This document shows positions 6,398-55,148 of a stretch of 62,374 nucleotides of DNA, in pieces. This DNA is from a virus (lineage: Duplodnaviria > Caudoviricetes). Made by a program: the position numbers and the translations under genes. Under the pieces are notes generated by a model. The model was not told the DNA's origin. It worked only from the letters and a program-made list of their open reading frames with translations, and made no database searches. The stretch covers positions 1-62,374 of the IMG/VR virus record IMGVR_UViG_3300020171_000028; one strand, written 5' to 3'. Positions within the stretch are counted from its first letter, which is position 1. Every line of letters starts with the position of its first letter.

Positions 6398-6951
6398 CGA
6401 ATTTTGTAAAACACTCCTAATTCGTAGTAATTTTGAAATGGATTGAAAGCGGCTTTGTAAGCCGTTTTTTTATTGTTTAAATATAAGATACCAAAACTAA
6501 AAGAAAGTTCGTTAAAACGGCTTATTTGCCCTCCTAGATATATATGTCCGGTAGTAGGAGAAGCAATAGTTATAGTTTTAGTAATGTAAGTAGGAAAATA
6601 ATGTATGGAAGGTTGTCGATATATTATCTTGTTCTCAGAAATAGAATCTTGCAAAGCTACAAATACATGTTCATTGTTTATTAACGTGTCGTGGTAAAAA
6701 TACTTAGCAAAATAATCAATCAAGATTGCTCCTGTATCAATTTTTTGAGTTTTCCATTTCGTGCTTCCTGTATCTCGGTAAAAAGGTACAGGCTTATATT
6801 TTACTACCGGATATGGAATAGAATCTCCTTTGATAGTATCATATCTAATTTCTATATCCGGTTGAGTAGTACGGATTGTATAATCTCTAACAAATATCAA
6901 AGACCCAATCCATAATACTAATACCAATACGGTTATTATTTTTGTTTTCAT
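6394..6951 (-). CDS. Lysis-module membrane protein (spanin-like candidate)
   Basis: Likely start MKTKII overlaps the amidase stop; N-terminal TM; follows endolysin. Confidence 0.6.
   Translation of the reverse strand: MKTKIITVLVLVLWIGSLIFVRDYTIRTTQPDIEIRYDTIKGDSIPYPVVKYKPVPFYRDTGSTKWKTQKIDTGAILIDYFAKYFYHDTLINNEHVFVALQDSISENKIIYRQPSIHYFPTYITKTITIASPTTGHIYLGGQISRFNELSFSFGILYLNNKKTAYKAAFNPFQNYYELGVFYKIR
6446..6471 (+). terminator. Intrinsic terminator where the two arms converge
   Basis: aaagcggctt-tgt-aagccgtttttttt. Confidence 0.6.
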
Positions 6952-9628: not shown

Positions 9629-10705
9629 TTATACCGGATTTGCCATTTGTGTTATTGTTATTACTACTGGGGTTGCTTCCCCCCAAGTATCTGTTATTGT
9701 TACTTTACAGCTTCTTGGAAGCCCTGTTGTGTTCTCTGATGATGCTTGAACCGTAAGCGTATAATCGCCTGTTGCTGTTGCTCCAGCAATTACTGTTATA
9801 AAAATACCATCACCCGTATCGCCTGCCACAGATGTAGTAGCCATAGCATCCGGAGTCACATTAACAGTTATACTTCCTTGAGATTTCCATTCCCAACTGA
9901 TATTGATTGTTGTTGAACTAGGAACAATAGATAAATTATTATTAAAAGTCCCTTTATTCAAACCGCTTATTCCTGTTGATTGTGCTGGTGTGATGATAAT
10001 CACTTCACCTGTGTGTGCTGCTTGAGCCGCAGATAACGTTTGCCATCTTTCCGCTTCTCCATTTGTTATCTCTTGCGAACTTATAAAGGCAGTCCAGCGA
10101 TAATCTCCAGTATAAGATGAACTAAACGGTGTTATATGATAATCAAATGGAATAGCAACCGCCCCACTAGCCAATGTGGATGCTACAGTCTGTACATATT
10201 TGTTCTCCCACGAAGCCCCCCACTCGATAAGTATTCCAAAGTAATAAGTTGAAATACCCATATCGGAAACAGTTATCCCTGCACTTGCTGTATTGATAAT
10301 TTGATTCCATGCCTGACTACCTAAACCTCTTATATTTCCCGAAGGATACGTATTTACATTTATAGTTGGGACGGAAGTGTGTTCATACCCCCTAAAATCC
10401 CCTAACCTGAAACCTTCTAACGGATAAGTCCCATAATCACCTCTAGGTCTTAAATAAGTCCAGAAACTATCTGCTGTATATGCTAAATCATCTAATCCAT
10501 TCGTCAATGGAGAAGTAAGAATACTATACAATACATTTGCCGCAGTATATTCCCACCAATTAGGACTGCCGTGCTGCCGTACAGGCTTCTTCTTACTCCA
10601 TTGATTTATACTAGAGGCAGTACATAATACCCCTACATTACGACTGGCACTTCCAATCGCTGTTCCTACCGAAGCAGTTGTGATATTTGTTTCTGGGAGA
10701 GCCAT
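9629..10705 (-). CDS. Tail/receptor-binding protein with C-terminal BACON-like domain
   Basis: C-terminus ASSENTTGLPRSCKVTIT…VITITQ; N-terminus INQWSKKKPVR…FRLGDFRGY typical of Bacteroidota phage tail proteins. Confidence 0.6.
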   Translation of the reverse strand: MALPETNITTASVGTAIGSASRNVGVLCTASSINQWSKKKPVRQHGSPNWWEYTAANVLYSILTSPLTNGLDDLAYTADSFWTYLRPRGDYGTYPLEGFRLGDFRGYEHTSVPTINVNTYPSGNIRGLGSQAWNQIINTASAGITVSDMGISTYYFGILIEWGASWENKYVQTVASTLASGAVAIPFDYHITPFSSSYTGDYRWTAFISSQEITNGEAERWQTLSAAQAAHTGEVIIITPAQSTGISGLNKGTFNNNLSIVPSSTTINISWEWKSQGSITVNVTPDAMATTSVAGDTGDGIFITVIAGATATGDYTLTVQASSENTTGLPRSCKVTITDTWGEATPVVITITQMANPV

Positions 10706-38114: not shown

Positions 38115-38322
38115 ACCAAGAAAAACTCCATTGAAAGAAATTGACGGAAACAGAGTAGGCCACACTAAAAACATCCACGACAAAGCTTTAGAATTAAAAG
38201 CAAAGCACGATGCTTATATGAAAGGCAAAAAGACCATTTTAGTAAAACATCCCACTGCCTTACGCTGTTGGATTGAAAAAATTGTACCTACCAAAACCTT
38301 ACAAAAAAATGAAAAGGACTAA
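38104..38322 (+). CDS. Hypothetical protein
   Basis: ORF in operon. Confidence 0.55.
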   Translation: MKFRPRKTPLKEIDGNRVGHTKNIHDKALELKAKHDAYMKGKKTILVKHPTALRCWIEKIVPTKTLQKNEKD

Positions 38323-38782
38323 TTATAGACATATCAAACATAACATCGGGCTTATCAAAAAAATAGCCACTTCCTTCCATGTCACTACTAGAATAGAATT
38401 AGATGATTTAATTTCAGAAGGATATTTGACTTATTTAGAAACTATAGAAAATTGGAATCCTAGTAGAGGTAAAATATCTACCTACATGTGGTATTGTTTA
38501 CATTCTAATTTAACTAACTATTGCGTAAAAGAAAAAAAATGCGTTCCTACTATTCCTTTAGAAGACATGGATTTCATATCTAAAACTTCTTCTCCTTTCT
38601 TTGAAAGATTAAATGAAGAGGCTTACGTTATTGCAAAAATAATTTTGAACTCTCCGGAAGAATTCATTTCTTTTTCAAAGAAAGCGGTACAAGAAAAATT
38701 AAAAAAAATCTTGTATAATAAAGGATGGACGGAAGAAAGAATCAATTCTGGGTTCGTTTGTTTACAATCTGTATTTAGTTAG
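38309..38782 (+). CDS. Sigma-70 region 2-like phage transcription factor
   Basis: DDLISEGYLTYLETIENWNPSRGKISTYMWYCL. Confidence 0.75.
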   Translation: MKRTNYRHIKHNIGLIKKIATSFHVTTRIELDDLISEGYLTYLETIENWNPSRGKISTYMWYCLHSNLTNYCVKEKKCVPTIPLEDMDFISKTSSPFFERLNEEAYVIAKIILNSPEEFISFSKKAVQEKLKKILYNKGWTEERINSGFVCLQSVFS

Positions 38783-39815: not shown

Positions 39816-40613
39816 ATGGCTGAAGGGAAAAAATCTTTCTTACTTTATACAGATTTACTTTACACAGTAGAACAACTTCCAGATGATATGGCAGGGAAAC
39901 TTTTTAAACATATTTTAGAATACGTTAATGACAAGAATCCCGAAACTGATGATTTAGTACTTAAAGTATCTTTCGAACCTATTAAACAACAATTGAAAAG
40001 GGATTTGAAAAAATTTGAAAACATCTGTGAGCAAAGAAGTGATTCAGGGACATTAGGAAATCTTAAACGGTGGAATGAGGATTTGTTTACTCAAGTAACG
40101 AAAAAACAAATATCACTCAAAGAAGCCTTAGAAATCGCAAACAATCGCAAAAATCGCAAACGCGATAAAATTATCGCAAAAATCGCTGATAATGATAATG
40201 ATAATGATAATGATATAATAAAAAAAAATAAACAAAAAAAAGTGATTGGGATATCTTTAGAGGATAAGAATAAAGAATATTTTCCATTAGCTAAACAACT
40301 ATCCAAAATTGTAAAAGAAAATAAAAACATATCTATCCAGTTACATGTAGTCAAGAATTGGAGCAATGATATTCGATTACTAACAGAAACTTCCAACATA
40401 GATATTCCTAGGATAGAAAAGGTCTTAGATTGGTATTCCAAAAATATAGGGAAAGAATACATCCCAATCATTCTATCTGGTAATGCCTTACGGACAAAAT
40501 TCTTAGCTTTGGAAAGTGCGATGGAAAGGAATGAAAAGAAAACAACTCCAGTGTCTCCTGTAAGATTTAAAAGTAGAACCCAAAGTTATAGAGACCCAGA
40601 TGAAATAATTTAA
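39816..40613 (+). CDS. Replication initiator-like protein with N-terminal DUF6291
   Basis: KKSFLLYTD…EQLPDDMAGKLFKHILEY; internal DNDNDND linker and iterons. Confidence 0.75.
   Translation: MAEGKKSFLLYTDLLYTVEQLPDDMAGKLFKHILEYVNDKNPETDDLVLKVSFEPIKQQLKRDLKKFENICEQRSDSGTLGNLKRWNEDLFTQVTKKQISLKEALEIANNRKNRKRDKIIAKIADNDNDNDNDIIKKNKQKKVIGISLEDKNKEYFPLAKQLSKIVKENKNISIQLHVVKNWSNDIRLLTETSNIDIPRIEKVLDWYSKNIGKEYIPIILSGNALRTKFLALESAMERNEKKTTPVSPVRFKSRTQSYRDPDEII
40132..40215 (+). repeat. Iteron-like ATCGC(AAA) repeats plus (TGATAA)n; probable replication origin
   Basis: aatcgcaaacaatcgcaaaaatcgcaaacgcgataaaattatcgcaaaaatcgctgataatgataatgataatgataatgata, followed by an A-rich tract. Confidence 0.7.
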
Positions 40614-40630
40614 ATTAAAAAATACGAATA

Positions 40631-41179
40631 ATGAAAACAAATTACAGAAAAATCGAGTTTGGAGCTGGTGATAGTATTGAAAGAGCAATGAATGATTTAG
40701 CACGTTTTAAAGAACGTGGCGAATTGGTTTATGGTGAGTTTAACGAGCAAAAATTATACTCAGACATTGACGACATTGATTCAGCTTATCAGAAAATTAC
40801 AGGCAAAACAAAGGCTGAATTTGACGAAGCAAGGCAAAAAGAACATGAAGAATATGAAGCTGAAAAGAAAAGGCACGAACAAGCTATTCCCGAATTAACA
40901 AAACAATGGATCGAAAAAGGGAACTTAATACTTGATGAAAAACATCACGAATTATGGGCTAAAATAGTTCCTGTTAGGCTTAAAGATTTATACAAAGGCT
41001 TTGAATTAGGGGCTTGCCTTGACATAGTGAGAGAGCTTAATGCAGGGTGTGTGTTTGAAAAAGTGAAAACTACAATTGAAGGACAAGGGCACTCTGGAAT
41101 GTCTTTCGCTTTAGTTTGCTCAATGGTAAAATCGTTCTGTGATAGAGGTGCTGAATTTGTAAATTACGCACGTTCTTAG
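40631..41179 (+). CDS. Hypothetical protein (distal cassette ORF 0, no upstream site visible)
   Basis: Ends tctTAG 11 nt before the AAC of site 1, like the other cassettes. Confidence 0.8.
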   Translation: MKTNYRKIEFGAGDSIERAMNDLARFKERGELVYGEFNEQKLYSDIDDIDSAYQKITGKTKAEFDEARQKEHEEYEAEKKRHEQAIPELTKQWIEKGNLILDEKHHELWAKIVPVRLKDLYKGFELGACLDIVRELNAGCVFEKVKTTIEGQGHSGMSFALVCSMVKSFCDRGAEFVNYARS

Positions 41180-41189
41180 TATGAACGCT

Positions 41190-41313
41190 AACGGACGGCA
41201 ATATGAAAAGTGCTGGATTACGAAGCACGGAATTGTCAAACTGCTGCGAACTTTGAAACGAGAACAAATATTTAATAACAGCACGAAACCCAGCATGTTT
41301 TATATTGCGTGTT
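41190..41313. repeat. attC-like site 1 (124 bp)
   Basis: AACG…gcaatatgaaaagtgctgg / ccagcatgttttatattgc…TGTT. Confidence 0.85.
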
Positions 41314-41340
41314 GTGCGTAGTGCTTTAATAATCAAAACA

Positions 41341-41751
41341 ATGACAAAAGAAGAAAAATTATCATTTTATTTGCCTTACAATATTAAAGGGCAATACAGA
41401 TTAGGTGATGTTGTTGAAAATGCACCTAACCCTGATGAAATTAGAGAAAAAACACTAACCACAGAAAATGCAGATTTTTTCTTTAAATTTTGTAAACCGA
41501 TATTAAGACCGATTGAAGATGCAATGACATTGAAAATTGATTTTGATGGAGAAGAAGATTTTTTTCACAATAATTTTTTTGGCTTTACAAATTTTAAAGC
41601 ATATTGGAAGGAATACGAAAGTTATGGAATGGCATATTGGCACAATAGAGCACCTTTTGTTGTTACTAAAAGATTACTTGAATATCATTTTGATGTTTTT
41701 GATATGATTAGATATGGATTGGCAACTTCAATGCACGATGCTGTCTCTTAG
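41341..41751 (+). CDS. Cassette 1 hypothetical protein
   Basis: Flanked by gttgtgcgtagtgct (41311) and agcattacgcacaac (41750). Confidence 0.8.
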   Translation: MTKEEKLSFYLPYNIKGQYRLGDVVENAPNPDEIREKTLTTENADFFFKFCKPILRPIEDAMTLKIDFDGEEDFFHNNFFGFTNFKAYWKEYESYGMAYWHNRAPFVVTKRLLEYHFDVFDMIRYGLATSMHDAVS

Positions 41752-41761
41752 CATTACGCAC

Positions 41762-41882
41762 AACGTCCGCAGGTATGTTGTCGTTGCGTGAATTTAGTAT
41801 AAACTTAAAAATAGAACAAATGAAAAATTTAGTAAGAAACTTATTTAGAGGTAGGAAGCAGCAATGCAATATATCTGATGTT
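41762..41882. repeat. attC-like site 2 (121 bp)
   Basis: caggtatgttgtcgttgc / gcaatgcaatatatctg with bulged T. Confidence 0.85.
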
Positions 41883-42035
41883 AGCGGTTCGTTGACACCT
41901 TTCGGAGAATCAATAAAACTGTTAAGAGATTTAGCTGACTTACAAAATGGCGCACCACTTGAACAGCATAGACAAGAGTGGGAAGAAACAATGGAACAGG
42001 TTTATGACTTCCTTAATAGGTGGGAAAGTCAATGA
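41820..42035 (+). CDS. Cassette 2 hypothetical protein (starts inside site 2)
   Basis: MKNLVRNLFRGRKQQCNISDVSGS…; IR gttagcggttcgttgac / gtcaatgaccgctaac. Confidence 0.7.
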   Translation: MKNLVRNLFRGRKQQCNISDVSGSLTPFGESIKLLRDLADLQNGAPLEQHRQEWEETMEQVYDFLNRWESQ

Positions 42036-42040
42036 CCGCT

Positions 42041-42129
42041 AACGGTGGCGATTGGCGAAGTAAAAGCCCTGCACTACCGTTTATGTTTAGCACTACACTT
42101 AATGGCTTTTATTTTGCCAATTGCGTGTT
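42041..42129. repeat. attC-like site 3 (89 bp)
   Basis: gcgattggcgaagtaaaagcc / ggcttttattttgccaattgc. Confidence 0.88.
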
Positions 42130-42178
42130 AGCGGATGCCCTTTTTCGAATTATTAATTAACAATTTAAAATAACAAAA

Positions 42179-42646
42179 ATGATACAAAAATTTAAAAAGA
42201 AACCTGTTGAGATTGAAGCAATACAATACACAGGTAAAAATGATTTTGAAATTGGTAAATGGTCAAATGATTTAGTTTACCCAAGCCCCGTTTTAGAGCC
42301 AAGTGAAAACAACCCAAGCGGTAGTTATTTGCAGATTAAAACACTTGAAGGCGTAATGACTGCAATAGTTGGCGATTGGATTATAAAAGGTGTTAAAGGC
42401 GAGTTTTACCCTTGCAAAAACGATATATTCTTAATGACTTATGATGTTGTAATTCCAAAAGATGTATTGGATGCTCAAAAATTCATACAAGAATGTGGTC
42501 GAGATATGGGATTTATGGGTTCACCTGAATATGACAGACAAAAGAAAATTGTTGATGCTTATTTTGAGCCTATTAAACAGAAAGAAAAAGAAGATTTAGA
42601 AATGGCTGAATACCTAAAACTCAAATCGAAGTACGAGGGTTCTTAG
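42179..42646 (+). CDS. Cassette 3: common phage protein of KKPVEIEA…GDWIIKGVKGEFYPCK family
   Basis: Motif; IR gttagcggatgccct / agggtttccgctaac. Confidence 0.82.
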   Translation: MIQKFKKKPVEIEAIQYTGKNDFEIGKWSNDLVYPSPVLEPSENNPSGSYLQIKTLEGVMTAIVGDWIIKGVKGEFYPCKNDIFLMTYDVVIPKDVLDAQKFIQECGRDMGFMGSPEYDRQKKIVDAYFEPIKQKEKEDLEMAEYLKLKSKYEGS

Positions 42647-42656
42647 GGTTTCCGCT

Positions 42657-42779
42657 AACGTTAAAATGTATGGTGTCGTGGCTGCCATAAACAAAGCCAC
42701 ATAGTTTAAAAACTTAATAATTTTAAATATGAAAAACGAACTTTCAAAAAACGAGCAGCCATGCACTATACATAGTGTT
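42657..42779. repeat. attC-like site 4 (123 bp)
   Basis: atgtatggtgtcgtggctgc / gcagccatgcactatacat with bulged T. Confidence 0.88.
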
Positions 42780-42947
42780 ATAGCCCGTTTATTAGTTTTA
42801 TTCTTTGCATTGCTAATGTTTACAATGTTTAGAACAGTATTGGACACTGGATGGGCTATTTATTGGGATGCTTTATGTGCAATTGGATGGGCTGGAAACT
42901 TATTGTGGATAAAGCCATTGTCGAAGTCTTTTTTTAATGGGCTATAA
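42729..42947 (+). CDS. Cassette 4 small membrane protein (starts inside site 4)
   Basis: Two TM; IR gttatagcccg / tgggctataac; stop TAA is within TAAC. Confidence 0.72.
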   Translation: MKNELSKNEQPCTIHSVIARLLVLFFALLMFTMFRTVLDTGWAIYWDALCAIGWAGNLLWIKPLSKSFFNGL

Positions 42948-43069
42948 CGTTCAAGTATTGCCGAAGGTGGGGCGTAAAAGTGCTACCGCTTTACCTAAGC
43001 ACAAAAGTTTAATAGTAGCACTAATGTTGAATTTGGGATGGTCTGCCCCACTTTTGGCAATACATTGTT
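42946..43069. repeat. attC-like site 5 (124 bp)
   Basis: gtattgccgaaggtggggc / gccccacttttggcaatac. Confidence 0.88.
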
Positions 43070-43091
43070 AGCAGCCGTTTTTTATCACGAT

Positions 43092-43478
43092 ATGGAAAAT
43101 TTAAAAGAATACATTAAAAACTGGATTGCTATTGATGGACAAAAACCTTGTAATGAGGATTTGTTTGTCAATGAGTTTATTGATTTGATTACAAAAATTG
43201 ATGATGAAAGAGATATTTCATTTGATGGCGAAGGCTCTTATTTTGGCAAACAAATAACGCTTCATTTGAATAGTGGCGTTTGGATTGGTGACCCGTTAAT
43301 TCATTTTGAAATTGCTTATAGCCAAAATCAAATTAGGGTTTACACAGCAAATCATCACGGGTTTTGGTATCCTGAATATTTATCAATGTCAAATAAACAT
43401 CCAAGATTTGAAGAAGTAAAAAAGCCACTATTTAAACTGCTTTACAAGGTTTTTGGTCTGCCCGAAAATGGCTGCTAA
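43092..43478 (+). CDS. Cassette 5 hypothetical protein
   Basis: IR gttagcagccgtttt / aaaatggctgctaac. Confidence 0.78.
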   Translation: MENLKEYIKNWIAIDGQKPCNEDLFVNEFIDLITKIDDERDISFDGEGSYFGKQITLHLNSGVWIGDPLIHFEIAYSQNQIRVYTANHHGFWYPEYLSMSNKHPRFEEVKKPLFKLLYKVFGLPENGC

Positions 43479-43597
43479 CGGTGGCAATAAGAAACGAAAG
43501 GGATTTGAAACCGCTTCTTTATCTACCGTTACAAGCCTTGCAAATAGCTACCACGCTCGAATTACAGATAATACCCTTTTGTTTTTTATTGCGTGTT
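43477..43597. repeat. attC-like site 6 (121 bp)
   Basis: gcaataagaaacgaaaggg / cccttttgttttttattgc. Confidence 0.88.
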
Positions 43598-43622
43598 ATA
43601 AAACGTTAATATTTAAATAATT

Positions 43623-43901
43623 ATGATAAAACATGAACAAATTACAGAAGTAAAAACAATATCAAAAAGGTATTGTGATGATTGCGGAAAAGAAACACCA
43701 TATAGGCGAACTTGTAACTGCTGCGGAAAAGATATGTGTAATGATTGTGTAGGACATGAAGAAAATGATGGTGGTGATTATTCAGATTACTATTGCTTAA
43801 AATGTTGGCACTTAGGAGAACCGTATCGAGATAAAATAAATGAGTTAGAAGTTCAGATAGCAGAACTAAGTGGCGAATGGATGTCGAAGTGTCGTTCTTA
43901 A
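43623..43901 (+). CDS. Cassette 6 Cys-rich zinc-finger protein
   Basis: Four CxxC pairs; IR gttataaaacgtta / taatgttttataac. Confidence 0.78.
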   Translation: MIKHEQITEVKTISKRYCDDCGKETPYRRTCNCCGKDMCNDCVGHEENDGGDYSDYYCLKCWHLGEPYRDKINELEVQIAELSGEWMSKCRS

Positions 43902-43909
43902 TGTTTTAT

Positions 43910-44033
43910 AACGTACTGCAGCCTTACGCAGTGGGGGCTTTTAACCACTGCACTAACTTAAAAGCACAAAATTATGAGTAACGAAAAATTGTCCAACGAA
44001 GCACAGAACCCCCCATTGAGTAAGGGTGTTGTT
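43910..44033. repeat. attC-like site 7 (124 bp)
   Basis: gcagccttacgcagtggggg / cccccattgagtaagggtgt. Confidence 0.82.
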
Positions 44034-44180
44034 ATGCCCCGTTTATTTGCTATTACAGCACAAGAAGGGTGGAATGAAATGTTTTGGGATAAAGAAAAAG
44101 CCCAACACAAAATTGATACACAATACAAAAAAGATTTTCCGAATGATGAATTTTGGGTTGAAGAAGTTAATGTCTCTTAA
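43974..44180 (+). CDS. Cassette 7 hypothetical protein (starts inside site 7)
   Basis: MSNEKLSNEAQNPPLSKGVVMPR…; terminal IRs do not match. Confidence 0.7.
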   Translation: MSNEKLSNEAQNPPLSKGVVMPRLFAITAQEGWNEMFWDKEKAQHKIDTQYKKDFPNDEFWVEEVNVS

Positions 44181-44189
44181 ATGCACCCT

Positions 44190-44315
44190 AACGGTCAGGC
44201 GGTTGGCGTTCGTTGCCGACTTTGGAACACGAAATTGTAAATTTAAAAATATAGTAAATATGAAATACGAAAGTTTGATACCAGAAAGACTCGGCAATGA
44301 CGCTAACCGCTTGTT
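44190..44315. repeat. attC-like site 8 (126 bp)
   Basis: ggcggttggcgttcgttgccga / tcggcaatgacgctaaccgct with bulged T. Confidence 0.88.
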
Positions 44316-44478
44316 ATGTGCAGGGCTTTGTCTGAATTGTAAACATCAGAGTTATAAAAGCGATAAGAACTTTGAAAAGACAGGTATTTGCATAGTGAAA
44401 TTTTGGAAAGACAAGAGATGTAAATTATCACCGAATAAGCCAGTTTTGAAATGTGCGGACTTTGAGCCTTGCACATAA
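44260..44478 (+). CDS. Cassette 8 Cys-rich protein (starts inside site 8)
   Basis: MKYESLIPERLGNDANRLLCAGLCLNC…; IR gttatgtgcagggct / agccttgcacataac. Confidence 0.68.
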   Translation: MKYESLIPERLGNDANRLLCAGLCLNCKHQSYKSDKNFEKTGICIVKFWKDKRCKLSPNKPVLKCADFEPCT

Positions 44479-44563
44479 CGGCTGCAAACATGAGCAGGCG
44501 GGCAATGCTCAATAAACCCGCACATACGCAACTGTGTCAGCCCGCTTGCTTATGTTTGTTGTT
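44477..44563. repeat. attC-like site 9 (87 bp)
   Basis: gcaaacatgagcaggcgggc / gcccgcttgcttatgtttgt. Confidence 0.88.
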
Positions 44564-44589
44564 AAAGGCTGGCGTTAATACTTTGTAAA

Positions 44590-44829
44590 ATGATACACGC
44601 AAGAGCAGATTATGACAGAATCCAAGACCCAAAAGGGAAAATTGGAGAAGATGAACCCGTTTTTTTGCTGAGAGCCAAAGACAGTTTAGCTCCTGGAATT
44701 TTGATGAAGTGGGCAACTGAGTTAATTAACAGAGGTGGCGACAAAAAAATGGCGAAAATGGTAACAGACCACGCTGTTAAAATGGTAGAGTGGCAAGAAA
44801 AAAACGGGTGCAAACTTCCAGATTTGTAG
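44590..44829 (+). CDS. Cassette 9 phage protein (DEPVFLLRAKD motif)
   Basis: IR gttaaaggctggcgt / acgcttgcctttaac. Confidence 0.78.
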   Translation: MIHARADYDRIQDPKGKIGEDEPVFLLRAKDSLAPGILMKWATELINRGGDKKMAKMVTDHAVKMVEWQEKNGCKLPDL

Positions 44830-44870
44830 AATGTTTCAGGTGAGCGTAGGGCTTTCTTACGCTTGCCTTT

Positions 44871-44991
44871 AACGGTTTGGCTAAGAATAGGCAGGGAAAA
44901 GAGCTTTACCCTTTCAGCCTACACGAATGATAAAACAAAACTCACAGGCTTAATTTGCAGACTTCGCCCCTGCTTATTATTAGCCTTTGTT
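44871..44991. repeat. attC-like site 10 (121 bp)
   Basis: ggctaagaataggcaggg / ccctgcttattattagcc. Confidence 0.86.
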
Positions 44992-45015
44992 ATAGGGCGT
45001 TTATAATTTAAGATT

Positions 45016-45441
45016 ATGAATACGGAATTTAAAAGAAAAGTATCTGAATTATTTCTAAAAAGGATTGACACGACTTATTTAAAAGGGTCTTGTGGAGAAC
45101 TTGGCGAATCTGTTAAAACTATTGATTATGATTATTTAAACGACCTTGTTAATGAAATAAGTGAGATTGTTAGCGATAATTTTGAACCAAAAAAATGTAT
45201 GCCTGATGGAATTAATTCTAAAGAGGAACACGATGAATATTTAAAAGCTATTGGGTATGAAAAATACGTGAAGGAATTAGAACACTTCAAAGATAGTCAC
45301 ATTGGACTTTATGTAATTGATAAAATGATTGATGACATCTTTACAGACACTCCATTAGAAAAAGACTGTAAAACAGTTGTCGAAGCTTATTTGGTTCAAC
45401 AATTTAAGCGATTAAAGTCTTTAATGTGGCGGATTTCTTAA
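45016..45441 (+). CDS. Cassette 10 hypothetical protein (integrase-proximal)
   Basis: IR gttatagggcgttt / aaatgccctataac. Confidence 0.78.
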   Translation: MNTEFKRKVSELFLKRIDTTYLKGSCGELGESVKTIDYDYLNDLVNEISEIVSDNFEPKKCMPDGINSKEEHDEYLKAIGYEKYVKELEHFKDSHIGLYVIDKMIDDIFTDTPLEKDCKTVVEAYLVQQFKRLKSLMWRIS

Positions 45442-45489
45442 ATGCCCTATAACATATAAATATATTTAACTTACTTTAACCTATTGATT
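45440..45489 (-). other. Putative attI-like primary insertion site
   Basis: Last AAC (45451-45453) is followed by A rather than G and by no stem-loop, and abuts the recombinase start. Confidence 0.55.
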
Positions 45490-46296
45490 ATGAATAAAGA
45501 TTATGGTAAAATTTTAAACATTTGCATTCAAAAGTTTAAATATTTAAATTACTCAGAAAACACTAGCAATATTTATGCTCATTATATCAAAGAATTCTTA
45601 GTAAAAACAGATAAATATATAGAGCATATAGTTTCAAATGACATGAATGCGTATTTAACAATGTATCGATTTTCCTCTATTTCTCAACAAAATCAAATTA
45701 TTAGTGCTTTAGCTTTTCTTTATAAGAAAGTATTAAATAAAAAATACGATAAAGTAGAATTCACAAGACCCATACGAGAAAAGAAACTTCCTAAAATAAT
45801 AGATAAAACGTACTTAATTAATAAAATATTGCGCATAAAGAATCTTAAACATAAAGCAATTTTAGCATTAGCATATTCTACAGGATTAAGAGTATCTGAA
45901 GTCATTAATTTAAAAATAAACGATATAGATTCAAAAAGAATGATAGTAAAAATAAATCAATCAAAAGGAAATAAAGATAGAATAGTACCATTAACAAACG
46001 ATTTGCTTAAAATACTTCGAGAATATTATTTAGAACATAAACCAAAAGAATTTTTATTTAATGGGCAGAAATCTTTAAAATATTCAGCAGGAAGTTGTAA
46101 TCAGTTAGTTAAGAGACATATAGGAAGCGAGTATCATTTTCATTTACTTAGACATTCTTGTTTCACTCATTTGACTGATCAAGGGGTTGATATTCGAGTT
46201 ATACAGAAACTAGCTGGGCATTCAAATCCTAATACGACTGCGATTTATGCTCAAGTAAGTACTAGTATTTTACATAGATTACCATTAGGAATTTAA
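45490..46296 (+). CDS. Tyrosine recombinase, integron-integrase-like N-terminal SAM domain, no IntI-specific insertion
   Basis: NYSENTSNIY; catalytic R (GLRVSE), K (KGNKDR), HxxR (HLLRH), H (LAGH), Y (TTAIY). Confidence 0.92.
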   Translation: MNKDYGKILNICIQKFKYLNYSENTSNIYAHYIKEFLVKTDKYIEHIVSNDMNAYLTMYRFSSISQQNQIISALAFLYKKVLNKKYDKVEFTRPIREKKLPKIIDKTYLINKILRIKNLKHKAILALAYSTGLRVSEVINLKINDIDSKRMIVKINQSKGNKDRIVPLTNDLLKILREYYLEHKPKEFLFNGQKSLKYSAGSCNQLVKRHIGSEYHFHLLRHSCFTHLTDQGVDIRVIQKLAGHSNPNTTAIYAQVSTSILHRLPLGI

Positions 46297-46300
46297 TTTT

Positions 46301-46310
46301 TTTGTATAAT
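46301..46310 (+). promoter_or_regulatory. Putative middle promoter TTTGTATAAT
   Basis: Repeated intergenic motif. Confidence 0.7.
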
Positions 46311-46326
46311 AAGAAAAAATAAAAAC

Positions 46327-46596
46327 ATGAAAAACAACAACAGAAAAATCACTCGAGGAAGACCTCGCCATTACCAAAGTTTCGATGATGGGACTACTTT
46401 CCTTCATATTACTGAAACAGAAACCCAAAGAATAACCCAGGAAGGTATGCGAAAAAGAATGGAATCTATGAAGCCTCTAAGAGAAGCTTCTAAAGCAACT
46501 AAAGATAAAAAAATACAAAAATTCAGAGGGACTTTAGTTTGGAATTCTTCCAAGGACGGGACCTTTTATGGAAATGTAAAAAGAGATTTGTTTTAA
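46327..46596 (+). CDS. Hypothetical protein
   Basis: ORF after promoter motif. Confidence 0.6.
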   Translation: MKNNNRKITRGRPRHYQSFDDGTTFLHITETETQRITQEGMRKRMESMKPLREASKATKDKKIQKFRGTLVWNSSKDGTFYGNVKRDLF

Positions 46597-46613: not shown

Positions 46614-46916
46614 ATGGAATTTATTGTTATTATGTTAATCAGTTTAATCGGATTAATGATTGTCTATGTACAGTACTTAGAATTACGACAAAAACATTTT
46701 GTTAAAACAGTAAAAAGAGGAGACCCTTGTCTATTTTATTTGAATGGTAAGGTACGAGAAGGAATTGTTTTGATGTATGTGAAAGAAAACATTTACTCTC
46801 ATGTACAAGATAATTATGGAAATATCCATAGAGTATTTACTGAGGATATCACTCCTCCAAAATTATGGAAATGCGAAAAGAAGAAATCTGGAGGAAAAGG
46901 ATTCTCCCAAAACTAA
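46614..46916 (+). CDS. Membrane-anchored hypothetical protein
   Basis: N-terminal TM. Confidence 0.6.
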   Translation: MEFIVIMLISLIGLMIVYVQYLELRQKHFVKTVKRGDPCLFYLNGKVREGIVLMYVKENIYSHVQDNYGNIHRVFTEDITPPKLWKCEKKKSGGKGFSQN

Positions 46917-47425
46917 TAAAAAGATTTACTCCTCGAATACAACAAGACTTACTTAAAATTGAATGGCCTGCAAATTTACCAAATGAAATTTCCAATCTGT
47001 ATCTATACGGGGAAACAGAGGTTGGAAAAACTATTTATGCGGCATTTCTTTGCTTACATGCTAGTAAATTAAAGTATTTAACAGAAGATATTTCCGGAAA
47101 AGATTTTCTTTTTGTTTCTTTTCCGGAATTGTTTATGGAGATAAAAGAAACTTTTGAAGATAAAACAAAATCTGAAGTAACTGTTTTAAACAAATACCGA
47201 GAAGTGGATTTACTTGTATTAGATGATTTCGGGGTTAAGAATAGTAGCGATTGGTTTATAGAAGTGCTTTATGTTATTATCAATTATCGATATGAGCAAC
47301 AAAAAACCACCGTATTCACTAGCAATTATTCTTTACAAGAAATGGCTTCCTTGTTAGGGGATGATAGAATTTCCTCTAGGATTGAACGGATGTGTCGAAT
47401 TATGTTAAAGAAAACTTGGAAATGA
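46865..47425 (+). CDS. DnaC/IstB-like AAA+ helicase loader
   Basis: GETEVGKT, LLVLDDFG, IINYRY, TVFTSN, DRISSRI. Confidence 0.88.
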   Translation: MEMRKEEIWRKRILPKLIKRFTPRIQQDLLKIEWPANLPNEISNLYLYGETEVGKTIYAAFLCLHASKLKYLTEDISGKDFLFVSFPELFMEIKETFEDKTKSEVTVLNKYREVDLLVLDDFGVKNSSDWFIEVLYVIINYRYEQQKTTVFTSNYSLQEMASLLGDDRISSRIERMCRIMLKKTWK

Positions 47426-50230: not shown

Positions 50231-50587
50231 ATGTACACAATTTCAAAAGAATTTGCTTTCAGCAGTTCACATCAGTTACCTCACTTGCCGGAAACCCATC
50301 CTTGCGCAAGAATTCACGGACACAATTACATAGTTAAAGTAGAATTGAAAGCCCGAGAATTAAACAAAGACCAATTCATTTTGGATTATCGTCAATTAGA
50401 TAATATTAAGATTTACTTAGACAGTTTTCTTGACCACAGGCATCTAAATGATGTTTTACCTATTTTACCTACCGCAGAAAATATGGCGAAGTACTTGTAT
50501 GAAAAATTCAAAAGTACTGTCCCTTGTCTTTCTGCTGTGGAAGTGTCTGAAACCCCTAAAACCAATGCAAGGTATGAAGTCGGTTAA
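50231..50587 (+). CDS. queD: 6-carboxytetrahydropterin synthase
   Basis: FSSSH, CARIHGHNY, LDHRHLND, PTAEN, VSETP. Confidence 0.93.
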   Translation: MYTISKEFAFSSSHQLPHLPETHPCARIHGHNYIVKVELKARELNKDQFILDYRQLDNIKIYLDSFLDHRHLNDVLPILPTAENMAKYLYEKFKSTVPCLSAVEVSETPKTNARYEVG

Positions 50588-51359
50588 ACAATTAATAGAA
50601 GCATATAAGAACACCGCTCCGGTTTTTGAAATAAAGGAAGGCGCCCCTTTTTTAAGTATTTCAGAATTCTTCATAGACACCATCCAAGGAGAAAATTTTG
50701 TAGGATGGCCTTCTGCCTTTATGCGCTTGCAGCATTGTACTTTAAATTGCGTTTATTGTGACAGCAGGGAAGTATGGAGAACAGGGCGTAAATACGGGTT
50801 CCCGGAAATACATCGATTACTAAATAAAGTAGACTCTTCCAATCGTTCATTGATTGATAAGTTTAAGGAAGGGCAACATCTAGTTCTTACCGGAGGTAGT
50901 CCTTTAAAACAGCAAAAGGAATTGATACTATTCTTGGATGAGTTCAAAGCAAAATATGGCTTCCTGCCTTATATCGAAGTAGAGAATGAATGTACTATTA
51001 TTCCAGCCACAAAATTGATTGAATATGTGAGTTGTTGGAATAATTCTCCTAAACTTGCAAGCAGTTTAAATCCAAGAGAAGTTCGGTACCGTCCGGAAAT
51101 CATTTTGATGTTATCCAATCTAAAAAACAGTTGGTTTAAGTTTGTGATAGGCAATAAAGGCGATTGGAAAGAAATCGAAAATGATTTTTTAAAACAAGGA
51201 CTAGTTGAACGTTCTCAGATAGTACTAATGCCGATGGGGCAAACTAGAGAACAATTAGAAAAAACAAAAGAATTGACAGTAGAATTAGCTATTGAAAACA
51301 ATGTCCGGTATACGTCCAGGGAACATATTGTTCTTTGGGATATGAAAACCGGAGTGTAA
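50574..51359 (+). CDS. queE: 7-carboxy-7-deazaguanine synthase (radical SAM)
   Basis: TIQGE, CTLNCVYCDS, LTGGSP, SPKL, FKFV. Confidence 0.9.
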   Translation: MKSVKQLIEAYKNTAPVFEIKEGAPFLSISEFFIDTIQGENFVGWPSAFMRLQHCTLNCVYCDSREVWRTGRKYGFPEIHRLLNKVDSSNRSLIDKFKEGQHLVLTGGSPLKQQKELILFLDEFKAKYGFLPYIEVENECTIIPATKLIEYVSCWNNSPKLASSLNPREVRYRPEIILMLSNLKNSWFKFVIGNKGDWKEIENDFLKQGLVERSQIVLMPMGQTREQLEKTKELTVELAIENNVRYTSREHIVLWDMKTGV

Positions 51360-51367
51360 AAAATAAA

Positions 51368-51377
51368 TTTGTATAAT
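51368..51377 (+). promoter_or_regulatory. Putative middle promoter TTTGTATAAT
   Basis: Repeated intergenic motif. Confidence 0.7.
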
Positions 51378-51393
51378 AAAAGAAAGTAAAAAG

Positions 51394-52179
51394 ATGAAAA
51401 CATTAGAAAAACAAGACTTAATCAAAGTCGCAAAAGAATTAAACGAGGTCTTAGGGCTTGAACCTGCCATTAATTTGAAAGCAGATGAAGAAACATTGAA
51501 AAATAAGCTAGAGGAAGCTTTTGAATTGATTGACCCAAAAGAAGATGAATTTACAGAATTTACTCAACAAGTAATAGACCAATTCAACACTTCCGGGGAG
51601 ATACTTACAGAAGAAGTGAAAGAAGAAGTGAAAGAAGAAGTGAAAGAAGAAGTGAAAGAAGAAGTTGTATTTGCATCTAAAGAAGCAAAAAGAGTTTTTC
51701 TTTTTAAGGAAATAAAGAAAGCAACTAATATGATGCCTATCCCTGCTGTAAATCATTTAAAAATACTTGTAACAACATATGAAGAATTTGAATCTCTACT
51801 ACCTAATCTTACAGGTAAATTTAATGTTACTACAATGATAGAAGACATGTACCGTGCACTCGGTAGTGAGGACAAAATTGTAGAAAAGCCTGCAAAGAAA
51901 GAAAAGTTTGCAAAGAAAGAAAAGAAAGAAAAGTTTGCAAAGAAAGAAAAGAAAGAAAAGAAAGTAGGTATTGTTGCTACTATTGTAGAATGCGTAGAAA
52001 ATGCAGATAAAAAAGAAGGCGTATCAAAAGAGGAAGTTTTAACTGTTTTAAAACAAAGATTTCCTGAACGCAACGAAACTTCAATGTGGAGTACAGTAAA
52101 ACTACATATCCCATATTTAATAACTAAAGAACGTTGGGAAGTTAAAAAATTAGAAAACGGTAATTTTTGTAAAGCATAG
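51394..52179 (+). CDS. Hypothetical protein with EEVK and KKEKFA repeats
   Basis: 12-bp tandem repeats ~51610-51666 and 27-bp repeats ~51892-51960. Confidence 0.75.
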   Translation: MKTLEKQDLIKVAKELNEVLGLEPAINLKADEETLKNKLEEAFELIDPKEDEFTEFTQQVIDQFNTSGEILTEEVKEEVKEEVKEEVKEEVVFASKEAKRVFLFKEIKKATNMMPIPAVNHLKILVTTYEEFESLLPNLTGKFNVTTMIEDMYRALGSEDKIVEKPAKKEKFAKKEKKEKFAKKEKKEKKVGIVATIVECVENADKKEGVSKEEVLTVLKQRFPERNETSMWSTVKLHIPYLITKERWEVKKLENGNFCKA

Positions 52180-52184
52180 AATAA

Positions 52185-52754
52185 ATGAAGAAAAAAACCA
52201 TTCATGCTGAAATAGAAACAGCTTTATTTAAACAATTAGAATACATTGGGGAAGATACTACCCGAGAAGGCTTACAAGATACTCCTTACAGAGTAGTGAA
52301 GTCTTGGCAGGAGATTTTCAAAGGATATACACAACAGCCGGAAGACATTATGACTGTATTTGATGCCGAAGGATACGACCAAATCATTATTTTGAAAGAT
52401 ATCGAAGTCTATTCCATGTGCGAACACCATATGTTACCTTTTATTGGAAAGGCTCATGTAGCCTATATTCCAGATAAGAAAATTGTTGGTATTTCTAAAC
52501 TTGCCCGCCTTGTAGACATATATGCTCGTAGGCTACAAATACAAGAACGGTTAGGAGAACAAGTAACTTCTGCTTTAATGGAAATCCTTTCTCCGAAAGG
52601 GGCTGCTTGTATTATAGAAGCATCCCATCTTTGTATGCGAATGAGAGGTGTTTCTAAACAAAATTCTATTATGATTACGTCTTCTTTGAAAGGCGCATTT
52701 ATAAGAGATGCTAGTGCAAAGGAAGAATTAATAAAATTAGTAAAAGGACAATAG
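52185..52754 (+). CDS. folE: GTP cyclohydrolase I
   Basis: [41 protein letters not shown]. Confidence 0.96.
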
Positions 52755-52755
52755 T

Positions 52756-53892
52756 ATGAGAAAATTATTTTATTTACCTTTAGAACCTTTACCGGAACGA
52801 TATACAACACAATTAGCAGCTGCAAAAAAAGGTTGGTTGGAAAGTTATTGGATAAAACAAGGTGTATCTTATGTACGAATAGAAGGAGAAAAATTAACAG
52901 ACGAAATAAAAACAGGTTCTGTATTAGATGCTAATGGAAGAGGATATTGGGCGATCAGTCAAATTCAAAAAATACTCTCTTTATTAGACCGTAACGAAAT
53001 CTCAAACGAAGATGTTATTTACTTCGATGATTTTTGGCACCCAGGTATTTCTGCATTACCTTACAGTTTCCATTTAACAGGAGTAAGACCAAAGATGTAT
53101 GCAATGCTTTATGCACAATCGGTAGACCCTTTTGATTTTACATATTCTATGAGATATTGGATGCGTGATTTTGAGAAAGGAATAAGTAAGATTTTAGATG
53201 GTATTTTTGTTACTAGTACTTGTTTACGTGATTCTTTGATATACGCAGGAATAGGAACAAAAGAATCAATTCATGTAACAGGGTTGATATTTAACAGTAA
53301 AGAAGTTGAAACATACTTCCCTCCAACGTTACCTAAAAAGAAGAAACAAGTTATCTTTAGTAGTCGTTGGGATATGGAAAAAAGACCAACGACTTTTTTA
53401 GCTATTGTAGATGCTGTTCTTAAAGTAAGAAAAGATATTACATTTGTTATTACAACAAGTGCGAAAAAACTTAGAAGTAACAATCCTGCATTATTACAAG
53501 TATTAAAGTACTATTTACATAAATATCCTGATAATGTATTCTTACGAGAAAATCAAACAAAGAAACAATATTACGCTTCTTTATTAGAATCTAAAATTCA
53601 AATAAATACAGCCGACCAAGATTTCGTTAGTTTTACTTTATTAGAAGCAACTACTTGTGGTTGTATTCCTTTGTATCCTTATTTTTTAAGTTTTCCAGAA
53701 GCATTAGAATATAAACATTCTTACATGTACCAAAAAGAAGATGTACAAGATGCAGTGACGAAAATATTGAAATTTATAGATTCAACGGAAACAGTTAATT
53801 TAACGTGGGTTTATGAAAAATACAATAAATCTGTAGAAAGAATGTTAAATGTAATGAAAGGAGAAAAATATGAAGCGTTGTATTGTAATTAA
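52756..53892 (+). CDS. GT-B (GT4-like) glycosyltransferase within the deazaguanine cluster
   Basis: FSSRWDMEKRP, QDFVSFTLLEATTCGC.P. Confidence 0.75.
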   Translation: MRKLFYLPLEPLPERYTTQLAAAKKGWLESYWIKQGVSYVRIEGEKLTDEIKTGSVLDANGRGYWAISQIQKILSLLDRNEISNEDVIYFDDFWHPGISALPYSFHLTGVRPKMYAMLYAQSVDPFDFTYSMRYWMRDFEKGISKILDGIFVTSTCLRDSLIYAGIGTKESIHVTGLIFNSKEVETYFPPTLPKKKKQVIFSSRWDMEKRPTTFLAIVDAVLKVRKDITFVITTSAKKLRSNNPALLQVLKYYLHKYPDNVFLRENQTKKQYYASLLESKIQINTADQDFVSFTLLEATTCGCIPLYPYFLSFPEALEYKHSYMYQKEDVQDAVTKILKFIDSTETVNLTWVYEKYNKSVERMLNVMKGEKYEALYCN

Positions 53893-54202
53893 AACTAATT
53901 TTTCTGCGGTACATCATTGGCCGGATTGTCCTATCAAAGAAGTTGCGTATTTAACAATGCCACACCGACATTTGTTTTATGTTACTTTTAAATTTTCTGT
54001 AAATCATAACGATAGAGATATTGAATTTATAAGTAAAAAAATAGAAATAGAAAGATACTTAAATGATGAATTTGCAAATAAATTTATCTCTGCGATGTCT
54101 TGTGAACAAATAGCAGAACAATTATTAATTCATTTCAACGCAGATTTTGTTTCTGTATTCGAAGATAATGAAAATGGAGCGGAGGTATATAATGATAACT
54201 GA
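53870..54202 (+). CDS. QueD-paralog T-fold protein (DpdL-like candidate)
   Basis: HHWP…LTMPHRHLF…HNDRDIEF…SCE…EDNENGA. Confidence 0.65.
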   Translation: MKRCIVIKTNFSAVHHWPDCPIKEVAYLTMPHRHLFYVTFKFSVNHNDRDIEFISKKIEIERYLNDEFANKFISAMSCEQIAEQLLIHFNADFVSVFEDNENGAEVYNDN

Positions 54203-55148
54203 TTTCAAAAATCCACTTTTCATTGATTCAGGTGCGCACGGCTTATACAACGAATATATGGTTCGAAAAGAATTTAAAGCAGGGTATTCTTTTTATGAAA
54301 CTCCTGCTTTTTTACAATACATAGATGAATACGCTGCCTTTATTAAACAAAATAAATCAAAAATAGATGTATTTGCAAATGTAGACGTAATTTTCAATCC
54401 TATGTTAACTTGGAAAGCACAATCCTACTTAGAAAAAACACATAACATAACACCTTTACCAGTTATTCATTACGGAACAGATTTGAAATGGTTAAAAAGG
54501 TACCTTGCAAAAGGCTATGATTATATTGCTTTAGGAGGACTAGGACAAGATGCAACAATGGCTATGTATAAGAATTGGGCAGACCAGGCTTTTGATATAA
54601 TTTGCGACCAACCTAGTAGATTGCCTAAAGTAAAAGTACATGGATTCGCTGTTACATCTTTTGGATTGATGTCTAGATACCCTTGGTATTCTGTTGATTC
54701 TACAAGTTGGTTGAAATATGCTGCATACGGAATGATTATCTTACCTGTATTTCATAAAGGAAAGTGGGATTATACAAAGCCTTTTTATATGATAAAAGTT
54801 ACAGCGAGGCAATCACAAAGTACTATATTATCTATCAACGGGAAACGAAAAGTGTTAATAAAAGATGTTGAAAAATATATCACAGAAAAAGGGTTTCAAT
54901 TAGGAGAATCAAACTTTAAAAAAGTAAAAAAAGGGTATGTTTTGAAAGAAAACGAAAGTTGGGCAGGGAATCAAACACGCAAAACAAAAACAACATTAGT
55001 TGAGGAAATCATCACTCCCGGATTATGTAATAGCGATAGGCAACGAGCAATTTTAAATGCATTATATTATTTAGATTTAGTTAATGAATTACCAGAATGG
55101 CCTTGGCCGTTTTTAAAACACGCACAAAAAAAATTAGAATTGTTATGA
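54192..55148 (+). CDS. dpdA: DpdA/TGT-like DNA base-exchange transglycosylase
   Basis: FIDSGAH, NVDVI, PVIH, YIALGG, KVHGFA, PWYSVDSTSW; next to folE/queD/queE. Confidence 0.75.
   Translation: MITDFKNPLFIDSGAHGLYNEYMVRKEFKAGYSFYETPAFLQYIDEYAAFIKQNKSKIDVFANVDVIFNPMLTWKAQSYLEKTHNITPLPVIHYGTDLKWLKRYLAKGYDYIALGGLGQDATMAMYKNWADQAFDIICDQPSRLPKVKVHGFAVTSFGLMSRYPWYSVDSTSWLKYAAYGMIILPVFHKGKWDYTKPFYMIKVTARQSQSTILSINGKRKVLIKDVEKYITEKGFQLGESNFKKVKKGYVLKENESWAGNQTRKTKTTLVEEIITPGLCNSDRQRAILNALYYLDLVNELPEWPWPFLKHAQKKLELL

Follow-up and report, generated by a model that had tools for sequence, protein, structure and literature searches.

Analysis of a linear viral sequence of 62,374 bp (the whole of IMG/VR record IMGVR_UViG_3300020171_000028, referred to here as the window; CheckV completeness ~90%) revealed a tyrosine recombinase gene at one end of an array of small genes separated by imperfect hairpins. 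We consider it highly likely that a phage, probably one that infects a member of the Bacteroidota, carries an integron-like cassette platform at this locus. The array has a regular anatomy, in which the boxes flanking the open reading frames (ORFs) are complementary across the ORF; an integrase, an attI-like site and attC-like hairpins are linked in about 100 loci; and the breakpoints of natural array variants fall at the triplet AAC. From the sequences, we infer that the linked integrase is the responsible enzyme.

The window contains ten imperfect hairpins of 97-99 or 131-135 nt, all on the + strand between 41186 and 44996 (Table 1). Every hairpin opens with a box of the form xxxxxAAC and closes with GTTxxxxx, and small ORFs lie between the hairpins. 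Around nine of the ten ORFs the 8-mers GTTxxxxx and xxxxxAAC are exactly complementary, as for GTTATAGG at 44989 and CCTATAAC at 45446; around cassette 7 the match is imperfect. Beyond the nine true pairs, the 8-mer search returned four more, comprising one by-product of a shared box and three chance pairs in AT-rich sequence. The + strand is the more stable in 9/10 hairpins when folded as DNA, and several stems are continuous for at least 20 pairs. Three short ORFs (starts 41775, 42729 and 44260) begin within the preceding hairpin, which fits a mobile unit made of a hairpin and the ORF that follows it. Exact 8-mer complementarity alone was too noisy in AT-rich relatives, and a stem-based hairpin detector, which permits G.T pairs, was used instead at a score of at least 12.5. 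Applied to both strands of the 62 kb, it gave eight hits, all on the + strand between 41190 and 44991, and nothing elsewhere; the remaining two hairpins fall below the threshold with scores of 10.0 and 10.5.

The last box of the array, GCCCTATAAC, occupies 45444-45453 and contains the putative crossover triplet AAC at 45451-45453. It is followed by 36 AT-rich bases that extend to the ATG at 45490 and include two TTTAAC motifs (45465-45470 and 45475-45480), and folding of the stretch after the box gave no long hairpin. Sequence and folding thus agree with the original prediction, made from the letters of the window, which had described a last cassette end followed by an AT-rich, non-folding stretch, two motifs and the start codon. 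The integrase stretch is present in four groundwater metagenome runs. A contig from a second run spans 44255-45692, including the junction of cassette 10, the attI-like site and the integrase, with zero differences, indicating that the junction is real and not an assembly artefact. Three further groundwater runs yielded contigs that match parts of the window array at 99+% identity.

The recombinase ORF lies on the + strand, starts at 45484 (TTG) or 45490 (ATG) and ends at 46296; from the ATG it encodes 268 residues, including DLLKILREYYLEHKPKEFLFNG. It matches the Pfam families Phage_integrase (2.8e-37) and, at the N terminus, the SAM-like Phage_int_SAM_4 (1.3e-11), and its PHROGs class is integration and excision. 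In an alignment of 22 family sequences, R134, H218, R221, H244 and Y253 do not vary, nor do K159 and K162 of the beta-hairpin, and the catalytic residues align with motifs of XerA, XerD and IntI4. The protein scores below the NCBIfam cut-offs for XerA (159 bits, cut-off 220), XerD (128, cut-off 329.6) and XerC (121, cut-off 335). It likewise falls short of the IntI models TIGR02249 (138 bits in two stretches, cut-off 265) and NF011946 (97 bits, cut-off 435); for comparison, the scores of true IntI, which were recovered from 84 of the 401 Pseudomonadota genomes, are 274-530 bits.

Integron integrases carry an insertion that is needed for integron function, according to the accessible text of Smyshlyaev et al. 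2021 (PMC8138268). Its absence from the window recombinase, as originally claimed, was borne out by sequence alignment and by structure prediction. Against the Vibrio integron integrase 2a3v, residues 13-179 of the recombinase align with chain positions 9-180 and residues 216-256 with 265-305, and the region of the insertion measures 36 residues in the recombinase versus 84 in 2a3v. TIGR02249 was matched at model positions 6-177 and 254-301 only, leaving 178-253 unmatched, and XerA (4a8e) is colinear with the recombinase over 21-261 (1.6e-31). The AlphaFold2 model (pLDDT, the predicted local distance difference test score, 83.4) is that of a plain two-domain tyrosine recombinase, with a loop (184-199) alone between helices 170-183 and 200-210 instead of the insertion. 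The top Foldseek match is XerA 5hxy (2e-13), followed by 2a3v (4.3e-13, TMq 0.70); XerA is the best Protein Data Bank match both by sequence and by fold.

Of 3600 candidates, at least 2939 are related to the recombinase at E<=1e-20. The 119 relatives listed are 263-284 residues long and 58-66% identical to it; their source names are generic (XerD, integrase or tyrosine recombinase, mostly 'XerD') and none is called an integron integrase. The proposal that such enzymes would be annotated as XerD-like and missed by IntI models holds, given these labels and the sub-threshold IntI scores. The closest relatives within the phage collection, at 34-39% identity, belong to cultured North Sea flavobacterial phages of three families (Ingeline, Leef and Freya/Danklef), and the platform occupies conserved positions in several phage families.

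Phylogenetic analysis (quick IQ-TREE, midpoint root) included 74 proteins: 32 family members, 30 IntI, all from the phylum Pseudomonadota, nine XerC/D and three other Bacteroidota recombinases, two fragments having been dropped. The 30 IntI formed one clade (SH-aLRT, a Shimodaira-Hasegawa-like approximate likelihood ratio test, 100) that excludes all 32 family members, and XerC/D split off with the same support of 100. The recombinase family occupies one side of a branch with SH-aLRT 80, on the IntI side of the XerC/D split. The enzyme most likely represents a recombinase clade that is related to IntI but distinct from it, in keeping with the distinct integrase clade that had been proposed. 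Three Bacteroidota chromosomal recombinases in open frames of 392-407 residues (L173, L125 and L172, on contigs G002:C3, G004:C22 and G004:C25) align with the two halves of the IntI model and lack the insertion, and two of the three group beside true IntI (support 83).

We surveyed 104 loci encoding related integrases, 80 of them viral (from 435 confirmed viral relatives) and 24 from genomes, mostly Bacteroidota. They were collected by an alignment-based scan, which was needed since a single-protein scan of viral contigs recovered 1 locus only. Upstream of the integrases, the detector found 308 hairpins on the integrase strand in 438 kb and 67 on the opposite strand; downstream, in 620 kb, it found 25 on the + strand and 17 on the - strand. 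Where at least 3 kb of upstream sequence was available (53 loci, leaving out six duplicate loci and three cultured-phage loci), 50 had a hairpin within 3 kb, 40 had at least two and 33 at least three. In the downstream control, 6 of 82 loci had at least one hairpin within 3 kb and none had two or more. The suggestion that homologues of the recombinase would adjoin AAC...GTT arrays was therefore supported. In 95 of the 104 loci, the motif AAC+TAnnATATA precedes the integrase at a distance of no more than 140 nt. In Cellulophaga phage Ingeline_1 (L002), an attI-like box (...TTGCTAAC, then ACCCACATAAC) precedes the integrase at 6830-6950.

The consensus of 287 unique hairpins is 5' (A/C)T-AAC-G(G/T)TT and 3' TATA-n5-T-GTT-A, with modal unpaired spacers of 4-5 nt after AAC and 1-2 nt before GTT. 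Hairpin lengths are bimodal (80-100 and 120-140 nt), the sites ranging from 50 to 230 nt overall. Crossover in the conserved triplet predicts that the variable positions of the boxes pair across the gene and not inside the hairpin, and the data agree: of 204 pairs of neighbouring hairpins, 114 show complementarity across the ORF at all five positions, versus 9 of 286 comparisons within a hairpin and 120 of 5000 pairs drawn at random. Some misses are expected, because intermediate hairpins may score below the threshold. Array ORFs of at least 60 residues lie on the integrase strand in 341 cases and on the other strand in 17. In other phages, homologues of cassettes 3 and 6 of the window lie in positions close to the integrase. 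A solitary AAC...GTT hairpin (score 20) was found at 10540-10626 of locus L021, ~2.7 kb downstream of the integrase and outside the array; solitary hairpins may be present elsewhere in related phage genomes.

Natural variation provides evidence on how these arrays change. The genomes of ten Polaribacter phage Freya isolates range from 43,978 to 48,920 bp. We compared seven of them; Freya_3 and Freya_4 have the same length as Freya_2, and Freya_7 the same as Freya_6. The distance from the last backbone gene to the integrase ATG is 66, 908, 1810, 2282, 4106, 4701 or 5008 nt, and across the seven isolates the differences in array length equal the differences in genome length exactly. The arrays of Freya_1, 2, 5, 9 and 10 form a nested series: their distal parts are identical, and the longer arrays have additional units next to the integrase. 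A proximal unit of 469 nt is found in Freya_6 alone, and an internal unit of 902 nt is missing from Freya_8. At the breakpoints the only common sequence is AAC, or CAAC for the internal unit, and the attI side does not vary. The same pattern was found in five metagenomic lineages. Among 20 pairs of contigs, seven were duplicates, four uninformative and nine divergent, two of the nine being redundant. The resulting seven non-redundant pairs are identical at 197 or more of 200 positions from AAC into the integrase, and upstream they are unrelated (26-39% identity), diverging 1-3 nt before AAC. Variability is thus polarised at the integrase-proximal end, as had been anticipated, and by analogy with the Freya series cassette 10 would be the newest insertion in the window phage.

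Polaribacter phage Danklef_1 (L174, 7977-8492) and a second locus, L175, carry a 5'-truncated integrase that retains the C-terminal 177 residues and corresponds to residues 96-272 of the Freya enzyme (90% identity). In the two of five Danklef isolates compared (Danklef_1 and Danklef_5), the array is identical over 6231 nt, with one cassette encoding an adenine DNA methylase. A second case of array variation was not found here, the length differences between Danklef genomes lying outside the 6231 nt compared. A truncated integrase accompanying a static array is weakly consistent with the platform model, and argues, equally weakly, against a recombinase that plays no part.

Alternatively, the variants could have arisen by homologous or illegitimate recombination between hairpins, or through host XerC/D as on dif modules, with the linked recombinase idle. 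Hairpin bodies are 72-82% identical between unrelated loci and could feed homologous recombination. Two window hairpins are 78-82% identical to hairpins of other phages beside unrelated cassette genes (window 42652-42783 and L022 3755-3901; window 44189-44316 and L095 108-234), and hairpin 'types' therefore seem to circulate independently of cargo. However, the sequences flanking the breakpoints have just 3-4 nt (AAC or CAAC) in common and the attI side is unlike the hairpin body, so homologous recombination cannot explain the attI-side events. The integrase, attI-like site and array also keep a fixed order and orientation over about 100 loci. The sites are strand-asymmetric hairpins of 50-230 nt, and a dif-like palindrome was not noticed in the stretches inspected, although no search aimed at dif was made. 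We regard this explanation as unlikely.

A second alternative is that the recombinase is an ordinary lysogeny integrase with an adjacent attP and that the hairpins are unrelated terminators or regulatory stem-loops. The PHROGs class would suit such a role, and the authors who described the cultured phages took the integrase as a sign of a temperate lifestyle, according to the accessible part of their paper. Metagenomic contigs end within 300 nt upstream of the integrase in 16 of 100 cases, compared with four downstream (43 and 12 within 3 kb), and such ends could pass for prophage ends. They are also what is expected if assemblies break at a variable, repeat-rich array. Contig ends just upstream of the integrase occur at L020, L024, L034, L037, L038, L045, L053, L075, L078, L098, L099, L105-L108 and others. 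Against lysogeny, phage genes flank the integrase on both sides in all three bacterial-genome loci examined (Mesonia, Polaribacter and Flavobacterium), and L111 has the large terminase upstream and the portal downstream. The Mesonia and Polaribacter loci are prophages, since they lie on contigs of 698 and 590 kb, and their internal integrase implies that they were not integrated via the attI-like site. The window hairpins do not look like terminators: a terminator scan found 5 sites against 3.9 expected, which is no excess, and Rfam (4227 families, E<=1) gave zero matches over 40000-46500. Neither the complementarity across ORFs nor the breakpoints at AAC is explained by lysogeny, and we find this reading very improbable.

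Capture of a classical integron, or of a cluster of attC sites lacking integron integrases (CALIN), from a bacterium, followed by degeneration of IntI, is hardly credible: the R boxes are of the RYYYAAC/GTTRRRY type, the imperfect palindromes have the size of attC, and integron fragments and attC clusters are known from phages (PMC9892861, accessible text), but the integrase is no decayed IntI, belonging to a large family of uniform length that lies outside the IntI clade (support 100), the array ORFs are inverted with respect to the classical layout in 341 of 358 cases, and the platform recurs at conserved positions in several phage families.

Given these analyses, we favour a cassette platform that would operate as follows. 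The 268-residue recombinase would recombine the attI-like site upstream of its own start codon with the attC-like hairpins, with crossover at, or within, the AAC triplet in each hairpin's 5' box (coding strand). As this AAC lies directly 3' of each ORF, the mobile unit would consist of a hairpin and the following ORF, that is, the hairpin body, GTTxxxxx, one or more ORFs and xxxxxAA. This corrects the original prediction, since crossover falls at the AAC 3' of the ORF and the ORFs are inverted relative to the classical layout. Viewed from the opposite strand, the integrase points away from attI, and the first unit opens with GTT and closes with its hairpin, which is the geometry of a classical integron; the window genes are read on the 'bottom' strand of that view, towards the integrase, and the same strand folds better. 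Recombination of attI with attC would add or remove units beside the integrase, and recombination of two attC sites would excise internal ones. The substrate is predicted to be a folded single + strand, as in integrons, arising during phage replication. In IntI, the I2 helix is said to contact extrahelical bases (reportedly MacDonald et al. 2006). Strand choice without extrahelical bases read by I2 might instead depend on the asymmetric internal loop (4-5 nt after AAC and 1-2 nt before GTT), and also on G.T wobble pairs, which occur on the + strand only. We speculate that cassette expression depends on transcripts that read through from the phage replication module. A sigma-70 promoter scan showed no excess, Bacteroidota promoters being outside its coverage.

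Several observations weigh against the platform model or limit it. The attI motif is missing from 9 of the 104 loci, and 3 of the 53 loci have no hairpin within 3 kb upstream. The Ingeline phage has no hairpin at the detector threshold, and the nine Ingeline records differ by 4 nt or less in length; the platform of Ingeline may contain few cassettes or none. The nested Freya series is compatible with serial gain and equally with serial loss from the attI side. Array variation was not seen in the window phage itself, where joints from the four groundwater runs had at most 30 letters per side at 90% likeness and were unusable; the uncovered bin at 45197-45453 in runs X3 and X4 is evidence neither way. 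The detector was self-made, with its threshold set on this window. The fold-energy bias to the + strand in 263 of 288 hairpins is partly built in because the detector permits G.T pairs, and the count of 308 versus 67 hairpins is the fair strand comparison. Bulged bases of the classical attC type were not seen in the ten window folds, in which bulges were not systematically measured, so that recognition of a folded strand is deduced rather than observed. Finally, monophyly of the family has an SH-aLRT of only 80, in a quick tree without XerA, XerH or archaeal IntI and with IntI from a single phylum.

Table 1. Features of the cassette platform in the window (folding energies in kcal/mol, by strand where both are given; detector scores from the stem-based detector).
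Feature	Position	Strand	Evidence and remarks
ORF 0, before first hairpin	40631..41179	+	distal array boundary (backbone) or oldest cassette
Array of ten units (hairpin body + ORF + xxxxxAAC box)	41193..45453	+	box complementarity, ORF list
attC-like hairpin 0 (CGCTAAC ... GTTGTGCG)	41186..41318	+	fold -17.6 (+), -17.0 (-); detector 17.0
attC-like hairpin 1	41757..41887	+	fold -9.7; detector 10.5 (sub-threshold); flanking-box complementarity; cassette 2 ORF starts inside
attC-like hairpin 2 (CCGCTAAC ... GTTAGCGG)	42036..42134	+	fold -20.8 (+), -16.2 (-); detector 20.5
attC-like hairpin 3	42652..42784	+	fold -16.6; detector 10.0; 82% identical to L022 hairpin; cassette 4 ORF starts inside
attC-like hairpin 4	42941..43074	+	fold -24.4; detector 19.5
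attC-like hairpin 5	43472..43602	+	fold -17.4; detector 18.0
attC-like hairpin 6	43905..44038	+	fold -18.3; detector 14.5; 3' box ambiguous (two adjacent GTT triplets)
attC-like hairpin 7	44186..44320	+	fold -21.9; detector 12.5; 78% identical to L095 hairpin; cassette 8 ORF starts inside
attC-like hairpin 8	44472..44568	+	fold -20.1; detector 18.5
attC-like hairpin 9	44866..44996	+	fold -15.7 (+), -16.2 (-), the sole one with the - strand slightly better; detector 16.5
Cassette 1	ORF 41335-41751; unit end 41764	+	
Cassette 2	ORF 41775-42035; unit end 42043	+	
Cassette 3	ORF 42179-42646; unit end 42659	+	
Cassette 4	ORF 42729-42947; unit end 42948	+	
Cassette 5	ORF ~43098-43478; unit end 43479	+	
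Cassette 6	ORF 43623-43901; unit end 43912	+	
Cassette 7	ORF 43974-44180; unit end 44192	+	
Cassette 8	ORF 44260-44478; unit end 44479	+	
Cassette 9	ORF 44590-44829; unit end 44873	+	
Cassette 10	ORF 45016-45441; unit end 45453	+	
attI-like site: last R box GCCCTATAAC and AT-rich segment to start codon	45444..45489	+	sequence, fold, relatives
Tyrosine recombinase, putative cassette integrase	45490..46296	+	Pfam, NCBIfam, Protein Data Bank alignment, structure model, tree

The distal end of the array is less clearly defined. The original prediction took ORF 0 as the oldest cassette; it may instead belong to the phage backbone, as neither a hairpin nor a matching GTT box was found upstream of it. 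A homologue (64% identity) lies 5.3 kb upstream of the integrase in L021, where a hairpin precedes it and the boxes mismatch, so that this evidence is ambiguous.

In the window, structural genes are encoded on the - strand up to ~35 kb. The + strand carries a replication module with an SNF2 helicase, sigma factor, primase, DnaD-like organiser, DnaC-like loader, DnaB-like helicase, 7-deazaguanine genes, polymerase and clamp loader. The array and the recombinase are embedded in the module, with the replisome organiser (39816-40613) on one side and the helicase loader (46865-47425) on the other. Upstream of the array, a sigma-factor-like protein is encoded at 38273-38782 (phrog_351, 1.1e-11), and it may drive transcription through the array. 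A cluster of the 7-deazaguanine/queuosine type at 50448-55148 comprises a QueE-like radical SAM protein, a GTP cyclohydrolase and a tgt-like transglycosylase, and its gene content suggests that the phage modifies its DNA.

Pfam identified zero families among the window array ORFs at E<=0.001, and PHROGs assigned two ORFs only, to families of unknown function. Among the 100 longest of 287 array ORFs from relatives, 17 have a Pfam family. Eight of these are DNA methyltransferases (seven N6_N4 methylases and one MT-A70), and the other nine are two RNA ligases, an Rv2179c-like exoribonuclease, a phosphatase, an Arr-ms-like domain, YopX and three domains of unknown function. We predict that the cargo consists largely of counter-defence or host-takeover genes.

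We also propose, with less assurance but as the somewhat more probable view, that these loci represent a second integron lineage in Bacteroidota phages, in which a compact enzyme without the I2 domain acts on folded, unbulged hairpins and rapidly exchanges accessory genes, often for counter-defence (orphan methyltransferases). Such a lineage would be widespread in metagenomes and would have escaped notice because its enzyme generally carries the annotation XerD. Integrons are defined, and surveyed for, by IntI with its extra domain, and a large sister system without that domain would widen the definition. It would also raise the question of how a minimal recombinase picks the folded strand, and offer a smaller enzyme for single-strand cassette recombination. 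The existence of near-identical phages that differ only in a block of small genes would be explained. Such blocks are likely stores of counter-defence genes, in view of the methyltransferases among the annotated array ORFs. The cultured Polaribacter phages Freya 1-10 already show array variation, which makes the system directly testable.

A description of this system was not found in searches of full-text literature; most subscription journals lie outside that coverage, and an earlier description is therefore possible. In the accessible part of the paper on the cultured North Sea phages, the integrase is mentioned solely as an indication of a possible temperate lifestyle, and the term 'integron' is absent. 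The closest report is that of Qi et al. 2023 (PMC9892861), the accessible text of which describes attC-like sites between small phage genes, including those of a Polaribacter phage, and orphan DNA methyltransferase cassettes. The phage CALINs and integron fragments in that text were obtained with IntI- and attC-based tools and reported without an integrase, and neither Cellulophaga nor XerD is mentioned there. Polaribacter phage P12002L, named in the same paper, was not among the 32 integrase matches at E<=1e-18. Unlike those CALINs, the arrays described here are linked to a dedicated non-IntI recombinase and an attI site.

The recombinase resembles Xer proteins in being a simple two-domain tyrosine recombinase of the same size, with XerA as its top Protein Data Bank match. 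It differs from them in scoring below all Xer cut-offs and in being separated from XerC/D by a branch with support of 100, and its sites are long strand-asymmetric hairpins beside a gene, in contrast to the 28-bp dif. An 'integron-like' subgroup of simple tyrosine recombinases, in which the insertion is not conserved throughout, has been described (Smyshlyaev et al. 2021, PMC8138268); the accessible text assigns no function, site or cassette array to the members without the insertion. The family studied here may be among those members.

The likeness to integrons is extensive. A tyrosine recombinase gene and an attI site stand at one end of an array of single-gene units, the sites are imperfect palindromes with AAC and GTT boxes that are complementary across the gene, variation is concentrated beside the integrase, and the cargo is mostly of unknown function. 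In classical integrons, each ORF is followed by its own attC and is transcribed from the Pc promoter in the direction leading away from intI. The phage ORFs, in contrast, point to the integrase (341 versus 17 ORFs) and have the hairpin upstream. Crossover in classical integrons takes place at G|TT, with a preference for the bottom strand (PMC9892861, accessible text). The phage hairpins have an asymmetric internal loop, with no bulges seen in the ten window folds, and the phage integrase lacks the IntI insertion, scores below the IntI model cut-offs and belongs to a separate clade. The phage platform is also set apart by its location, within or beside replication or packaging modules.

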